From Nannocystis bainbridge (GTDB lineage Bacteria > Myxococcota_A > Polyangia > Nannocystales > Nannocystaceae): a stretch of 64,000 nucleotides of DNA. Where the stretch lies: contig NZ_JAQNDL010000001.1 of NCBI RefSeq assembly GCF_028368995.1, forward strand, positions 3,232,001 to 3,296,000. The letters run 5' to 3'. This document shows positions 21,745-34,930 of this stretch, piece after piece. Numbering within the stretch: position 1 is the first letter of the stretch; each line of letters begins with the position of its first letter. The position numbers and the translations under genes are program-made. The notes under the pieces are model-generated. The model had not been told where the DNA came from. It was given only the letters and a program-made list of their open reading frames with translations, and ran no database searches.

Positions 21745-23046
21745 CTACACGCGGTCGAGCGCCGCGAGCAGCTGCTTCCCGAGCTTCTTGTCGGTCATGT
21801 AGATGTAGGCGATCCGTCCGGCCAGGCTGGACAGCGTCTCGCCTTCCTTCAGCGGCTTGCCGTGGGCCAGGTTGTGCACGGCGGCCCGGACCTCGCGCTT
21901 GAACTCGCGGGTGACCCGGGGACCCTGCTTGCCGTTGACCACCAGGCCGGTGACCTGCTGGCGGCCGCCGGAGCGGTGCACGCGGGTCTTGTCCGGGTGG
22001 ACGGTGAAGCCCTCGGCGGCGGCGATGATCGAGATCCCGCCGAGCAGCCCGCCGACGTGCGGCTTGCCCTTGTGCTCGTTGGGCAGGCTGAACGTCAGGT
22101 CGTCGGCGTAGCGCGTGTATCGCCAGCCGAGCTTCTTGGCCAGGCCCTGCAGGCGGCGGTCGAGCCGCAGGCACAGCGTGTTGGTGATCGCCGGGCTGGT
22201 CGGGGCCCCCTGCGGCAGGCAACGTGGCCCGAGGGACAGGTAGTAGGTCGTGCCCTCGACCTCGGCCACGTGGCGCGGCGCCTCGGTGCACAGCAGCGCC
22301 AGCAGGGTCGCGATCTGCTCGCGGTAGCCGGCCTTGCGGAACACCCCCTTGACCCGCGGCAGCGTCACCGTCGGGAAGAAGTCCTTGAGGTCGACCTTCA
22401 GCAGGATCTGCGAGTCGCGGTGGACCGCCGCGTTGGTGGCCGTCGAGCGGCCGTGCAGGAACCCGTGGGCCGCCCCGTGGACCGGCAGGCGCTCCACCAC
22501 CTCGCGCAAGATCCACCGCTGCGCCGCCTTGAGCGTGCGGTGCGGGGCCCAGATCGCGCGCTTGCTGCCGTCGCGCTTGGGGATCTCGAACCGGTAGTAG
22601 TTGAGCTTCGTCGCCGCGTCGCGGTGGTACGCGAGGCGGCGCAGCTCGGCGATGCTGACCCCGAGCGCCTCGGCCAGCTCCTTCGGCTTGTCGAGCCTCG
22701 GCAGCTCGTTCTCCGCCTGGCGCTCCTCGGCGCCGGGCAGGTCCCACTTGTCGTGGTCGAGCTGGTCGTTCCAGAACACGCCCTCGCCGAGGTGGACCAG
22801 GTGCGAGGCCTTGTAGGCGAGCCACGCCTCCTTGGCCAGGCGCCGCTTCTCGGCCGCCTCGTCCTTGAGCGTCTTCTTGTAGCGCTCGAGCTCGGCCTTG
22901 CTCATGCTGTCGGTCGGCTTGCGCTCGACCAGGTAGCCCTTCTCCTTGAGCTGGGCCTCGATGTACTTGTCGCGCCCGCCCGCCGACTCGACGGCGCGCC
23001 AGGTCTCGAGCATGCGGCTGTAATCAATGCGGTTGGTATTCGCCAT
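21745..23046 (-). CDS. ret: Retron-type reverse transcriptase (Mx162-like)
   Basis: IPKRDGSKR, LPVHGAAHGF, region X NAAVH, DLKDFFP, LPQGAPTSP, catalytic YADD, region Y RQQVTGLVVN; N-terminal extension resembles my recollection of the Myxococcus Mx162 RT. Confidence 0.95.
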   Translation of the reverse strand: MANTNRIDYSRMLETWRAVESAGGRDKYIEAQLKEKGYLVERKPTDSMSKAELERYKKTLKDEAAEKRRLAKEAWLAYKASHLVHLGEGVFWNDQLDHDKWDLPGAEERQAENELPRLDKPKELAEALGVSIAELRRLAYHRDAATKLNYYRFEIPKRDGSKRAIWAPHRTLKAAQRWILREVVERLPVHGAAHGFLHGRSTATNAAVHRDSQILLKVDLKDFFPTVTLPRVKGVFRKAGYREQIATLLALLCTEAPRHVAEVEGTTYYLSLGPRCLPQGAPTSPAITNTLCLRLDRRLQGLAKKLGWRYTRYADDLTFSLPNEHKGKPHVGGLLGGISIIAAAEGFTVHPDKTRVHRSGGRQQVTGLVVNGKQGPRVTREFKREVRAAVHNLAHGKPLKEGETLSSLAGRIAYIYMTDKKLGKQLLAALDRV

Positions 23047-23052
23047 GATGGT

Positions 23053-34600: not shown

Positions 34601-34930
34601 CCGCTCGTAGGCGCCGTCCGAGCGCTTCCACAGATCGAGCAGGACCTCGTGCAGCTGCAGCCGCGGCGGCAGCGGGGTCTCGGCCTCCTTGGCCTCGAGC
34701 GCGCGCATGCTGTCGATGCGGTAGCGGGCCCGCTCCTGCGGCTTGGAGCGCGTGAACTTCCAGCTCGTCAGGTGCTGGCTGAAGCTCGCGAAGGTGAGCG
34801 CGCCCTCCCGCGGCGGTTTGTCGGGCCGCGGGTCGGCGGCGCCGGCGAGGCTCACGATCAAGGTGGACAGTTCCGGGTCGCGGCTGTCCCACGCGCGGCG
34901 GATATCATCGAGGCTGAGTTCGAGGGCCAT
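31652..34930 (-). CDS. Helical-repeat protein with an internal BRCT domain (retron-associated)
   Basis: LGGKTFLFTGKLATMKRDDAEEKVTAAKGKNSGSVTAKLDYLVIGD is a ligase-type BRCT (~32770-33030); ATG 34930 has a GGAG RBS (frame open to 35014); TGATG overlap with next gene. Confidence 0.88.
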   Translation of the reverse strand: MALELSLDDIRRAWDSRDPELSTLIVSLAGAADPRPDKPPREGALTFASFSQHLTSWKFTRSKPQERARYRIDSMRALEAKEAETPLPPRLQLHEVLLDLWKRSDGAYERAALLDVIQKVPLRWGPWRGLKQIFKEAEAKGDVEILGALAVRFDHAFATKQRKVGEISRPTLGYLVRRAWRYLRRLGEAAAPAYVDGAVAVLRHYEDSTTWQNTWVYNHILHHETKKYTRRNFKLYRSGQPQLSERAFAELWRRTPRPVLQLLERARSEQVRKFTVQALKTDFRANLREVEAPWAARLIAVGSGTVDEFVIWLLGNVPKFDQGSFRELGLHEPVLQLLDSRADAARAYAANYARTHARDLPLDRLILLANNSNAEVRKLVATLLGDRDPRKDIGLDAWGRLLGTQHGHDLAVAALRKHFSARELTPAWFADRLLDSRQKVFAFASELLTKVHSFKTLGADFFRDLLDDPRISASATSFALDALSQFPREELGKDFLARMVLHPHARPTLLKWISEDKIKAEDIDAGFWRAVAFQPTWAEDKWIAELIASGRPWARELRFDEGLAATALAFLSDVRRFRPSQLGFDWLMLLALRPESQYRNFALEYMTKALVPADFAPKSEEAPKAEAAKGSKTIDLGGKTFLFTGKLATMKRDDAEEKVTAAKGKNSGSVTAKLDYLVIGDDGSPLYGQGRKGSKQVAAEKLVEKGAPIKIISETAFLQMLAGEQRSFSGDSVQAGCERLWEMATGPGPADAPQADFARQYIRRHHPDISLATTDRPVDPGAEIPAEFLSWARVKPLLTDTRAPVRQFGLELARWELARWSPPLSELLGVVESPYSEVREFLAKALFAEDNADNKRFRIDPTTLTPAAVYPFCESLIPEVRAIGMGLVRRDARLAIPEELFRLSESPDRHVVAFVVRTIWHLYRDRGITDGWKPAPRPEQKAAPGPKASAGATAKKAELEPPEGRGAPVRPTGLPAPGEALRDFMRRLLFTIPPTKPSAEAKQADAEVVTLPEEHAPKARKLRPLPARKAKLALVEAMRDLAEADAVFAALAGPVLVEFMGSRGASERAACLVALARVGAAHPELKLSPEAA

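Follow-up and report, generated by a model that had tools for sequence, protein, structure and literature searches.

Retrons are defined, and are detected by software, as a reverse transcriptase (RT) together with a contiguous ncRNA gene, and the founding family of retrons, that of Mx162, is type XIII. In the table of Mestre et al. (2020), type XIII consists of SWIM cluster 114_1 combined with HEAT/ARM proteins, which are sometimes encoded by two genes. The type belongs to RT clade 10 and includes Retron-Mxa1/Mx162, Mxa2/Mx65, Sau1/Sa163 and Nex2/Ne144 (Mestre et al., 2020), and a 2026 metagenome survey (PMC13712802) places it among the most abundant retron types. Our literature search found no experimental function for type XIII retrons, in agreement with the original prediction, which was made from the letters of the DNA described below. 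For Ne160, the sentence in a review (PMC6868368) describes duplicated msr-msd repeats with no RT within a kilobase, and it is proposed there that a distant RT or another element inserted the repeats.

The window analyzed here is a stretch of 64,000 nucleotides of Nannocystis bainbridge (contig NZ_JAQNDL010000001.1, positions 3,232,001 to 3,296,000). It carries what is likely the protein half of a type XIII retron, with the msr-msd unlinked and serving the RT in trans.

Four-gene operon of the type XIII class

Four co-oriented genes are present on the minus strand: gene 1 (31652..34930, 1092 aa) for an ARM/HEAT-repeat protein with an inserted BRCT domain, gene 2 (24960..31652, 2230 aa) for a WD40 and HEAT protein, gene 3 (23053..24963, 636 aa) for a SWIM protein with a WGR-like tail, and gene 4 (21745..23046, 433 aa) for the retron RT. 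All four were assigned with PADLOC, and genes 1, 2 and 4 also with Pfam. The coupling claimed in the original prediction was found as described: genes 1 and 2 overlap by 1 nt (TGATG, 31652), genes 2 and 3 by 4 nt (GTGA, 24960-24963), and 6 nt (23047-23052) separate gene 3 from the RT gene. GC3 is 0.97-0.98 in all four frames. The ORF list gives 31652-35014 on the minus strand (1120 aa) as the longest frame of gene 1. The ATG at 34930, which the prediction had chosen, is preferable, because six Nannocystis genomes are near-identical from that ATG and GGGAG lies 7 nt upstream of it, whereas the stretch 35014-34930 varies among the six genomes by substitutions and a 1-nt indel.

The class assignment holds firmly, since all four proteins match PADLOC type XIII models very strongly: the RT matches RT_XIII at 3e-159 (runner-up model RT_other, 4e-96), the SWIM protein matches SWIM_XIII at 9e-194 over residues 24-540, and genes 2 and 1 match two HEAT-ARM_XIII models, PDLC02919 (E=0, 2314 bits, residues 11-2219) and PDLC02921 (E=0, 1219 bits, model positions 2-868/869), respectively. 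With these E-values the operon is far beyond chance. The partner genes co-occur with the RT, and the identical four-gene order was found in 20/20 related loci fetched. The class, with its two-HEAT-gene variant, is thus the already described type XIII retron (Mestre et al., 2020).

The RT has the retron motifs that had been noticed in it, NAAVH (residues 205-209), YADD (313-316) and VTG (365-367), and these positions are invariant or nearly so across an alignment of 18 sequences. Pfam RVT_1 matches at 1e-19, and an N-terminal extension typical of the myxobacterial clade is present. Its placement among retron RTs is borne out by its best solved relatives, which are all retron RTs, with Ec86 the closest and Ec67, Kva2, Ec78, Ec83 and Eco8 as further ones.

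The SWIM protein is composed of a DEDE-type acidic motif, a winged-helix region, a SWIM zinc finger and a C-terminal WGR-like tail. The zinc finger is indicated by a CxCx12CxH motif at C512/C514/C527/H529, and the Pfam SWIM score of 17.1 lies below the cutoff of 19.6. The statement that the operon has no recognisable toxin active site did not take the acidic motif into account: D129-x7-D137-x4-E142 is present, and D129, E142, D147 and E148 are invariant in 16 aligned SWIM sequences. Later D/E positions of the published motif, which Mestre et al. (2020) report for the type XIII SWIM family, vary among the 16. The WGR domain that had been assigned to this protein is retained here as a WGR-like tail (residues ~578-634, minus strand 23062..23232), on the basis of alignment and a weak BLASTP match: R592 W593 G594 and other residues are at least 90% conserved, and the tail matches (E 0.26) residues 384-441 of a paralogous type XIII ARM protein, a stretch on which Pfam WGR scores 25.8 bits. 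Pfam gave no match on the tail itself at E<=10, and the WGR-like identity of the SWIM C-terminus is weakly supported. An Atlas search with the SWIM protein returned SWIM-family clusters only, and its profile gave no match among PDB sequences, as was also the case for the ARM protein of gene 1.

For gene 2, the predicted WD40-HEAT composition was confirmed by Pfam, with HEAT_2 (2e-71, in 10 stretches), WD40 and beta-propeller families matched in the 2230-aa protein. An N-terminal WD40 propeller (residues ~65-304) is followed by a long HEAT-repeat solenoid, and a poly-Asp tract is encoded at 26842-26955, where TRF reports (CGT)n at 26849-26943.

In gene 1, the BRCT core (residues 637-687, minus strand 32870..33022; Pfam PF00533, E 1.3e-4) sits within an insertion of ~115 aa. 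The BRCT call stands as a borderline one, with 22.5 bits against a cutoff of 21.3 and a match in only 4/15 orthologs. The insertion is restricted to the longer orthologs of one clade, the orthologs of 928-968 aa being without it, and the BRCT stretch matches other BRCT-bearing frames in 5/5 Nannocystis genomes (4e-13 to 6e-12). On this distribution, BRCT is a late, clade-specific insertion that is not ancestral to the system.

Flanking regions

An msr-msd contiguous with the RT, which belongs to the type XIII description, is lacking: only the 6-nt gap lies upstream, and downstream there is a terminator-like hairpin with a T-run just 3' of the RT stop (21675..21695, minus strand). A terminator scan of 21200-21800 gave 4 sites against 0.2 expected, and 3 of them overlap at this position; 5 further Nannocystis loci retain the CCGCCGCC...GGCGGCGG hairpin. 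The best match in the window of an nhmmer profile built from 49 ncRNA copies reached only E 0.71. Rfam found nothing relevant in the window, and its models miss even the clear msr-msd of the paralogous retron in the same genome.

Two neighbouring regions were considered as ncRNA candidates and rejected. The region 34931..35148, conserved among 6 genomes, is read as a divergent promoter and 5' leader between gene 1 and a lipoprotein-like gene (35149-35619, plus strand); it is too short, its sole inverted repeat is not kept in the window, and comparison of the 6 genomes gave no conserved inverted-repeat pair. A 38-nt tandem array after the RT (21280-21657) varies from 1 to ~9 copies among Nannocystis species, and its hairpin overlaps with the convergent gene's stop codon. 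This hairpin recurs across the genome as a REP-like element (84 copies by a strict and 165 by a relaxed definition), and the array was not taken as a part of the retron.

Unlinked msr-msd units

In seven loci with ~50% RT identity and the same four-gene operon, a SWIM-RT spacer of 350-600 nt carries a classical msr-msd and a TTGACA box. When these operon-embedded RNAs were used as queries against the 11-Mb N. bainbridge genome, only two places matched, C5:226187-226396 and 226510-226727 (5e-10 and 1e-15). They belong to two full-length tandem msr-msd units at C5:226145-226753, on a contig other than that of the operon, and the 49-copy profile matches them at 2e-66 and 3e-67. Since the two halves are on separate contigs in this assembly, their distance is given from relatives: in four of these, including a record named N. 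exedens DSM 71, RT and units lie on one contig 3.2-8.9 Mb apart. The original prediction, which recognized the retron RT, missed that no msr-msd adjoins it and that the template genes are unlinked.

An individual a1/a2 stem closes each unit, which further contains a TAGC priming-G context, an msr hairpin that is conserved and an msd stem of ~43 bp, whose sequence differs between the two. The predicted folds (-154 kcal/mol, z -9.1, and -165 kcal/mol, z -9.95) share the architecture of an adjacent ncRNA. In a covariation test, 92.5% of cells were paired, compared with 72.3% in shuffles (0/500 reached this value), and the covariation score was 0.511, compared with 0.156 in shuffles (0/500) and 0.06-0.20 when slid; double changes were found in 26/42 pairs. 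The mean pairing energy of a1/a2 arms is -35.8 kcal/mol for cognate and -23.3 for non-cognate combinations, and the cognate arm is within the best 10% for 35/49 copies. The MAFFT/RNAalifold alignment misses the a1/a2 stem because arm lengths vary. These similarities of sequence and fold show the C5 units to be homologous to the msr-msd inside the same operon of distant relatives.

Contigs from two RNA libraries of two studies cover both units at depths of 16-1060 and 13-83, with flanks at 0-2.2; these are assembled environmental libraries that may contain DNA, and ends and strand are not readable from the contigs. In the DNA-type runs X2 and X9, units and flanks are covered alike, which gives no indication of msDNA copy number. 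A simple promoter/terminator scanner made no call around the units, and in our reading of the sequence a hairpin plus T-run appears to follow each of them. Directly upstream lies a conserved gene of 238 aa with no Pfam or PADLOC match. All of its 209 homologs are annotated as "hypothetical"; they include relatives of ~185 aa, some of which are labelled as Actinomycetota MAGs. This gene may be only a landing site for the units. Copies of ~60 nt, corresponding to half-hairpins of the msd of both units, were also observed at intergenic sites, one of them 98% identical.

Distribution and selection

RT matches at E<=1e-30, with window type and paralog type both counted, were found in every genome of genera g1 (10/10), g11 (5/5), g12 (7/7), g15 (6/6) and g16 (11/11), one g12 genome having the paralog type only. 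RTs of the split type form one clade of 12 rows from three genera with support of 100/99, and all members of this clade have the operon, with its synteny kept and strong purifying selection acting on it. Against five Nannocystis species, dN/dS is 0.04-0.12 for the RT, 0.14-0.21 for SWIM and 0.18-0.24 for WD40-HEAT, as compared with 0.41-0.57 for the flanking kinase gene in the same species.

The exact msd signature is present in 36/73 genomes of the order, and control matches numbered 0. A window-type RT, taken as E<1e-120, a cutoff chosen after the data had been inspected, was also found in 35 of the 36; the exception, G033, is 84% complete. Six RT-positive genomes (G044, G029, G056, G060, G066 and G008) gave no exact signature match, and in G008 the ncRNA is interrupted by Ns. 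Five others (G011, G012, G067, G068 and G070), with paralog-type or weaker RT matches only, have no signature. N. bainbridge has two units, and relatives have between one and four. A single branch of the tree accounts for the split, the BRCT insertion and the 238-aa neighbour; since kin are not independent, their coincidence counts as a single event. The RT tree shows the split state as monophyletic and of single origin.

Assignment of the templates and proposed mechanism

Only two retron RTs were found in the N. bainbridge genome, that of the window and that of the paralogous, classical type XIII retron (G000:C1:2369264-2377140; PADLOC RT_XIII 5e-186, SWIM_XIII 2e-239 and WGR_XIII E=0). The paralog has three genes as compared with the four of the window, its RT is 46% identical to the window RT, and Pfam places WGR at the N-terminus of its ARM protein. 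Its msr-msd, in the 325-nt SWIM-RT spacer, has perfect a1/a2 arms and a sequence that does not match the C5 units; with an msd that we estimate at ~144 nt, this retron is probably Ne144. Since it has its own adjacent msr-msd, the C5 units fall to the window RT by elimination, and we infer this assignment from homology and phyletic pattern as well.

The operon could instead be an ordinary self-contained type XIII retron whose template was not recognized, the C5 units being inert relics or belonging to the paralogous, Ne144-like RT, a complete type XIII RT encoded by the same genome. Retron RTs can work in trans when artificially supplied, according to PMC6868368, and the partial msd copies scattered through the genome indicate that msd-like DNA spreads. 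We consider this very improbable, because the paralog is already provided with a template of its own, unlike the C5 units, and these are homologs of the RNA that lies inside orthologous operons, have been conserved in three genera, show covariation and have coverage in RNA libraries. Moreover, the 49-copy profile found no candidate template in the window, and the five genomes with only paralog-type or weaker RTs are without the signature, though G033 is an exception to this pattern.

Under the preferred reading, in which the window RT is served by unlinked templates, the msr-msd would have moved, in the ancestor of the three Nannocystaceae genera, to a site downstream of the 238-aa gene. The RT would act in trans on both C5 RNAs and yield two msDNA species of ~155-165 nt, which probably correspond to "Ne160", an msDNA for which no RT had been found. 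The two solenoid scaffolds may serve as a docking platform for the RT-msDNA particle and for the SWIM protein, whose invariant acidic cluster would be the most likely catalytic (nuclease-like) output, and the winged-helix, SWIM, WGR-like and BRCT modules may read the state of msDNA or of DNA ends. This effector mechanism is wholly inferred. As to the output, phage-triggered growth arrest, as in studied retrons, and a domesticated chromosomal function appear to us about equally likely.

A classical abortive-infection retron, in which msDNA and RT keep a DEDE-type SWIM nuclease in check until the msDNA is altered by a phage product and the scaffolds only assemble the complex, is quite conceivable, although we would not put it at even chances. 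The invariant acidic cluster agrees with it, PADLOC lists the four proteins as defence components, and the solved-mechanism retrons that match the window RT are all anti-phage, as judged by their titles. In addition, HEC-02 (4.5e-89), a candidate defence pair, is encoded 1.3 kb upstream and recurs at this site in 2/5 other Nannocystis species. Unlike patchy defence islands, however, the operon occurs throughout five genera, where it keeps its synteny and is passed on vertically (dN/dS 0.04-0.24), and no mobile-element genes were found flanking it. Mestre et al. (2020) likewise regard the vertical inheritance of type XIII as atypical of such islands.

Vertical inheritance and strong purifying selection speak for a domesticated function, in which a complex loaded with msDNA would work on DNA ends or breaks through its WGR-like, BRCT, SWIM and winged-helix modules and would sometimes patch msDNA fragments into the chromosome. 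A DNA-end role would suit the WGR-like and BRCT modules, and the intergenic half-hairpin copies come from both C5 units, with the msd of the paralog showing likewise; titles by Lampson cited in PMC6868368 refer to retrotransposed msDNA copies. We nevertheless hold this proposal only tentatively and think it rather unlikely, since BRCT is late, the WGR call is weak, Pfam finds no PARP or ligase catalytic domain in the four proteins, and the scattered copies may be functionless accidents. More doubtful still is the whole combination of a naturally split retron fixed and vertically inherited in Nannocystaceae, with one RT, several msr-msd genes, an msDNA repertoire, WGR-like and BRCT modules and half-hairpin msd fragments left in the chromosome, which would supply the RT of Ne160 and have a role at DNA ends or the chromosome rather than in abortive infection. 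The repertoire in this combination is suggested by conserved flanks and loop of these msr-msd genes together with differing stems, as if one enzyme made several msDNAs.

If the template genes are indeed megabases away, duplicated and retained over three genera, linkage of RT and ncRNA would be dispensable for a retron and a single RT may serve several templates. The window RT would then be a concrete, testable candidate for the RT of the orphan Ne160 repeats of Nannocystis exedens. A split type XIII system would also allow RNA and protein halves to be manipulated separately, and ncRNA predictors restricted to the vicinity of the RT would score such systems as template-less.

Comparison with known systems

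Among solved structures, the RT of Retron Ec86 (Eco1) is the closest to the window RT (E 6e-41 over residues 115-430). Ec86 differs in having a type II-A effector, a contiguous ncRNA, no solenoid scaffolds and no N-terminal extension. The comparison with PARP1-type sensors, drawn in the original prediction, which suggested a large DNA-end-sensing complex, is an analogy only: similar accessory modules are present or weakly indicated in the operon, but they are spread over separate polypeptides, BRCT is not ancestral, and Pfam matches of the four proteins include no PARP family and no ligase catalytic domain.

The described type XIII retrons are the nearest relatives as whole systems. They share with the window the matched RT, SWIM and HEAT/ARM models, the N-terminal extension of the RT, myxobacterial vertical inheritance, a long msd hairpin and the TAGC priming context, and the two-HEAT-gene sub-architecture of the window is also mentioned by Mestre et al. 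(2020). In contrast to their contiguous msr-msd, the template genes of the Nannocystis system are unlinked and duplicated. Furthermore, its WGR-like domain is on the SWIM protein and not on the ARM protein, a BRCT is inserted in the ARM protein, and a WD40 propeller is carried by the 2230-aa HEAT protein.

Retron-Nex1 (msDNA-Ne160, N. exedens) resembles the C5 units in genus, in duplicated msr-msd and in an RT-less vicinity, as stated in PMC6868368. The predicted msDNA of the C5 units is ~160 nt by our rough estimate, which is consistent with the name Ne160, and the record named N. exedens DSM 71 carries the same two units. From the one sentence in this review and the rough length estimate, the C5 units are probably the Ne160 msr-msd. 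The review suggests that the Ne160 repeats were inserted, whereas the C5 units appear as conserved, RNA-covered genes with a candidate cognate RT operon.

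Organization and classification of the operon

The operon is composed of four ORFs on the minus strand (21745-35014), which encode an RT of 433 aa, a SWIM protein of 636 aa, a WD40-HEAT protein of 2230 aa, and an ARM/HEAT protein of 1120 aa, here listed from gene 4 to gene 1. The tight coupling of these genes described in the original prediction was found again: genes 1 and 2 overlap by 1 nt (TGATG, 31652), genes 2 and 3 by 4 nt (GTGA, 24960-24963), and only 6 nt separate the SWIM and RT genes, and a terminator-like hairpin follows directly 3' of the RT gene. GC3 is 0.97-0.98 in the four frames, and the window has ~72% G+C. 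The ATG at 34930 is most likely the start of gene 1, as had been proposed, because six Nannocystis genomes are near-identical from this position onward and GGGAG is located 7 nt upstream, while the 84 nt up to 35014 contain substitutions and a 1-nt indel among Nannocystis genomes. The RT motifs NAAVH, YADD, and VTG are intact in the translation and invariant or nearly so among 18 aligned RTs.

Some match to the RT was detected in 47 of the 73 genomes of the order. The predicted association of the RT with its partner genes holds in other genomes, since all 20 loci analyzed contain the four genes in one order at RT identities of 48-81%; the SWIM protein shares 95-97% identity with its counterparts in N. 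pusilla, N. punicea, N. exedens DSM 71, and N. radixulma. Two loci, L024 (genome G031) and L026 (G036), have odd ORF lengths in an otherwise conserved operon (SWIM and RT joined in a single frame of 833 aa, a HEAT gene with 1438 or 2557 codons' worth of protein (aa), and a 639-aa ARM gene), which may be frameshifts, fusions, or assembly errors.

The assignment to type XIII retrons was right. All four proteins match PADLOC type XIII models: the RT matches RT_XIII (3e-159), the SWIM protein SWIM_XIII (9e-194), the 2230-aa protein HEAT-ARM_XIII PDLC02919 end to end (E=0, 2314 bits), and the gene 1 protein HEAT-ARM_XIII PDLC02921 (E=0, 1219 bits). According to Mestre et al. [quoted passage not shown] Both the class and the four-gene sub-architecture are hence already catalogued. 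Three of the four sequence features of the type are present in the operon, and the fourth, a contiguous ncRNA, is absent there, though an ncRNA is present elsewhere in the genome.

Protein domains

Pfam detected RVT_1 in the RT, and ten HEAT_2 stretches and WD40/propeller matches (residues ~65-304) in the 2230-aa protein. The SWIM zinc finger scores below threshold in Pfam (17.1 bits; cutoff 19.6) and is recognized by its motif residues C512, C514, C527, and H529. The best solved relatives of the RT are all retron RTs of other types, e.g., Ec86 at 6e-41, and a sequence-profile search gave no solved structures for the SWIM or ARM proteins. A (CGT)n repeat on the plus strand (26842-26955) corresponds to a run of ~35 residues in the 2230-aa protein, nearly all Asp and broken by F, V, and S, which might serve as an acidic linker or mimic nucleic acid.

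Three domain-level claims of the original prediction have to be modified. The BRCT domain of gene 1 is real (22.5 bits; Pfam cutoff 21.3), and its stretch matches other BRCT-bearing frames in five of five Nannocystis genomes (4e-13 to 6e-12), but it is secondary, being found by Pfam in 4 of 15 orthologs; it is a ~115-aa insertion between conserved blocks in the longer orthologs (1068-1144 aa) and is absent in the 928-968-aa orthologs of more distant genera. A WGR domain had been assigned to the SWIM protein, in which Pfam gives no WGR even at E<=10. Its last 60 residues are conserved, with R592-W593-G594 and others at >=90%, and align weakly (BLASTP E 0.26) with residues 384-441 of the ARM protein of a second retron of this genome, a segment that is WGR by Pfam (25.8 bits as a fragment and 21.4 in the whole protein; cutoff 22). 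The likeliest reading of these alignments is that a divergent WGR-like domain is carried by the SWIM protein in this operon and by the ARM protein in classical ones, which is a weak hint that the two cooperate. Lastly, the statement that no toxin active site is recognizable needs qualifying, as four acidic residues of the SWIM protein (D129, E142, D147, and E148) do not vary among 16 sequences, that of the second retron included, and fall where Mestre et al. (2020; PMC7736814) placed a transposase-like DEDE motif.

Search for the template RNA

Retrons depend on an msr-msd gene, which in textbook cases adjoins the RT gene. An nhmmer profile of 49 msr-msd copies gave no match better than E=0.71 in the window. 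An Rfam scan found nothing relevant at the window retron, and Rfam was also blind to the obvious msr-msd of the second retron of this genome, a classical type XIII retron (G000:C1:2369264-2377140; locus L063) consisting of WGR-ARM, SWIM, a 325-nt spacer, and RT. Perfect a1/a2 arms of ~19 nt, TAGC, and a long hairpin are present in this spacer. The RNA of this retron resembles nothing in the window; the retron is probably Retron-Nex2/Ne144. Identical weak RT_XIII scores (1.9e-6) were observed in three frames of 636-666 aa (G000:C1:3394479-3395069, C3:907419-908009, and C2:1697706-1698296), which are probably copies of another RT element, e.g., a group II intron.

In seven loci at ~50% RT identity, a SWIM-RT spacer of 350-600 nt contains a classical msr-msd with a TTGACA box, a2 arm, GTTAGCC, GGCGGCG/CGCCGCC hairpin, msd stem of ~43 bp, and a1 arm. 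A first nhmmer profile, built from six such operon-embedded RNAs and searched against the 11-Mb genome, gave two tandem matches on contig C5, at 226187-226396 (5e-10) and 226510-226727 (1e-15), and nothing below E=4 in the rest of the genome. With the 49-copy profile these units scored 2e-66 and 3e-67, followed by five partial copies. Unit 1 spans L042:5147-5426 and unit 2 L042:5481-5754 (L042 being G000:C5:221000-231000), with predicted priming G at C5:226181 and C5:226512, respectively. By eye, each unit has its own closing stem, which differs in sequence between the units, TCTAGC, a conserved msr hairpin, a long msd hairpin, and then a GC hairpin with a T-run, the last of which was not called by a simple terminator scan. 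The MFE is -154.1 kcal/mol (z -9.1) for unit 1 and -165.4 kcal/mol (z -9.95) for unit 2; an operon-embedded ncRNA of the same architecture gave -160.9 kcal/mol (z -11.3). The copied part would be roughly 155-165 nt in the units and ~144 nt in the second retron, these being position-based estimates by analogy with the Mx162 numbers in PMC6868368. No RT-like frame is present on the 720-kb contig C5.

For both retrons, partial msd copies of 40-77 nt, usually one hairpin arm together with the conserved base next to it, are dispersed over sites that appear to be intergenic: C1:725768-725827, C1:1154788, C1:1547849, C1:3879060, C2:867074, and C2:1810524 for the C5 units (one is 98% identical to unit 1), and C1:2632478, C1:3643565, C1:364921, C5:287627, C2:2194328, and C2:635856 for the second retron. 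They recall the "retrotransposed msDNA" of which titles by Lampson reportedly speak.

Conservation and apparent transcription of the units

The RNA structure is under selection. For 49 msr-msd copies from 33 loci, RNAalifold predicted 42 pairs, 26 of them with compensatory double changes. Paired cells amount to 92.5% versus 72.3% in column shuffles and the covariation score to 0.511 versus 0.156, values reached by 0/500 shuffles in each case, and the score falls to 0.06-0.20 when partners are slid by 1-3 columns. At the msd stem base, A-U switches to U-A exactly at the boundary of two clades (29 and 20 copies). Because their length is too variable for alignment, the a1/a2 arms were tested apart: mean pairing is -35.8 kcal/mol for cognate and -23.3 kcal/mol for non-cognate arms, and the cognate arm ranks first in 16 of the 49 copies and in the best 10% for 35, ties being expected since near-identical orthologous arms sit in the non-cognate set. 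The units of this genome gave -33.7 (1/48 non-cognate arms as good) and -34.1 (3/48). The apical loop CTGG..CAACC.CG is invariant in all 49 copies, and we infer that it is a candidate protein-binding site, with the stems free to vary.

Among the matches listed, parts of L042:5100-5800 were present in 20 runs from 14 studies, six of them RNA. Four runs, all as assembled contigs, were compared with L042:4900-6000. In a soil metatranscriptome (X7), the summed depth is 16-1060 over the units and 0 over the flanks, and contigs of 185 nt (5200-5384, no difference) and 190 nt (5526-5715, three differences) were found. In a root RNA library of another study (X17), the depth is 13-83 over the units and 0-2.2 over the flanks, and Illumina adapter adjoins the contigs at 5168 and just past 5729, suggesting short inserts. 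In two DNA-type runs (X2 and X9), flanks and units are covered alike, with breaks in hairpins. Since contigs show neither ends, strand, nor level and RNA libraries can hold DNA, the RNA coverage is supportive rather than proof. Small soil, root, and sludge libraries from 14 studies (15 to 3108 million letters) contained 0.29-0.65 of the units' sampled words, and these data suggest that molecules of the units, or of their conserved cores, are abundant in the environment.

Phyletic distribution of the split arrangement

The exact signature CACAAGGWAGGCTNTTC-N95-125-GTGAGCCTWCCRTGTCCC is present in 36 of the 73 genomes, and its reversed control in none. A window-type RT, defined as a best match below 1e-120 (a threshold set after bimodal scores were seen), is present in 41 genomes; 35 genomes have both RT and signature, 31 have neither, one has the signature only (G033, 84% complete), and six have the RT only (G044, G029, G056, G060, G066, and G008, in the last of which the ncRNA is broken by Ns). 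A single copy lies directly upstream of the RT in genus g15 (6/6) and G010, and in genus g16 each genome has 1-4 copies, which lie upstream of the RT, in tandem downstream of it, or both (four downstream in G064; one upstream and two downstream in G057 and G063). One or two copies away from the RT were found in the window genome, nine of ten other Nannocystis genomes, and genera g11 (4/5) and g12 (7/7). The signature is absent from ten split-type RT loci (L022-L029, L038, and L039), each covering ~14 kb on the upstream and 3 kb on the downstream side of the RT. Where RT and ncRNA share a contig, the distance between them is 5.6 Mb in G040, 3.4 Mb in G041, 8.9 Mb in G042, and 3.2 Mb in G046, and in the N. 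exedens DSM 71 record both units lie on an 11.27-Mb contig ~5.6 Mb from the operon.

A 23-row RT tree places the split-type RTs (12 rows) in a single clade with a support of 100/99 and a long branch of 0.88. Its sister group is made up of the ten adjacent-type rows (89/84); the root is tentative because the outgroup, the second retron's RT, sits on an extremely long branch.

A conserved gene for a 238-aa hypothetical protein immediately precedes the ncRNA in 16 of 18 unlinked loci, the two exceptions being second copies. In this genome the gene is at C5:225354-226067 (L042:4355-5068), and the ncRNA follows ~75 nt after its stop codon. Within the order the gene is found only in the split clade (the window genome, other Nannocystis 9/10, g11 4/5, and g12 6/7); neither g15 (0/6) nor g2 (0/8) has it, and one weak partial match occurs in g16 (1/11). 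Since kin share history, this coincidence with the split counts as one event. In the protein, a variable Pro-rich linker joins an N-domain to an almost invariant C-domain (C-terminal 75 residues), and Pfam and PADLOC gave no match. All of its 209 relatives in the database are annotated as "hypothetical"; among them are ~185-aa proteins, some of which carry Actinomycetota MAG labels. The gene may encode a partner, or be a mere landing site.

Selection and genomic neighborhood

Against five Nannocystis species, dN/dS (Nei-Gojobori, rough at such high GC) is 0.04-0.12 for the RT, 0.14-0.21 for SWIM, and 0.18-0.24 for WD40-HEAT, versus 0.41-0.57 for the adjoining convergent kinase-TPR gene. Flanking genes are syntenic within the genus, and neither transposase nor phage genes were seen in the window. 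A candidate defence pair, HEC-02 (36214-38057, plus strand; PADLOC HEC-02A ATPase 4.5e-89, small partner 2.9e-12), is located 1.3 kb upstream of the operon, and the N-terminus of its ATPase is at the same place in two of five other Nannocystis species. The operon is also flanked by three Ser/Thr protein kinase genes at 8051-9634 (minus), 12147-15608 (plus), and 18040-21285 (plus), two of them fused to long TPR arrays, and the window further encodes a Kunitz-domain protein (35616-36125) and QueC (60121-60825).

Between the RT and convergent kinase genes, a 38-nt tandem array (21280-21657; TRF 5.9 copies, 84% matches) comprises up to nine degenerate copies, each with a CCTGTCC-TTCG-GGTCAGG hairpin, and the last copy overlaps the kinase stop codon; other Nannocystis species have one to ~4 copies at other spacings. 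The hairpin CATGTCC-N2-6-GGTCATG, e.g., at 21436-21453 and 21595-21612, is a REP-like dispersed palindrome with 84 copies in the genome (165 in relaxed form; ~0.2 expected from base composition), and resembles the conserved CATGTCCCAGGTCATG near the msd template 3' end.

Proposed function and comparison with known retrons

The data show the anatomy of the operon, its type membership, the split arrangement, and selection on the RNA structure. From retron biology (the review PMC6868368 and titles and abstracts of structural papers), the RT would recognize the msr hairpins of both RNAs, prime from the 2'-OH of the TAGC guanosine beside the a1/a2 stem, copy the msd into a hairpin DNA of ~160 nt, and remain bound to the product. 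By further inference, this particle might be held by the two solenoid proteins and the SWIM protein, whose acidic cluster would be a candidate catalytic site. For the output, we see somewhat less than an even chance of phage-triggered growth arrest, and a domesticated role at DNA ends or the chromosome seems slightly less likely still; the remaining probability goes to another function or none.

The C5 units are probably identical with Ne160, an msDNA of N. exedens. In literature searches that covered passages of PMC7736814, PMC13712802, PMC6868368, PMC12548924, PMC8632793, and bioRxiv 2024.01.25.577267, neither a naturally split retron nor an RT for Ne160 was found to be described, and the supplements of Mestre et al. 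may flag missing ncRNAs. The RT, SWIM, and HEAT/ARM components are those of known type XIII retrons, whereas the template genes here are unlinked and duplicated; the class itself being known, the interest of the present system lies in these separate and apparently expressed template genes.
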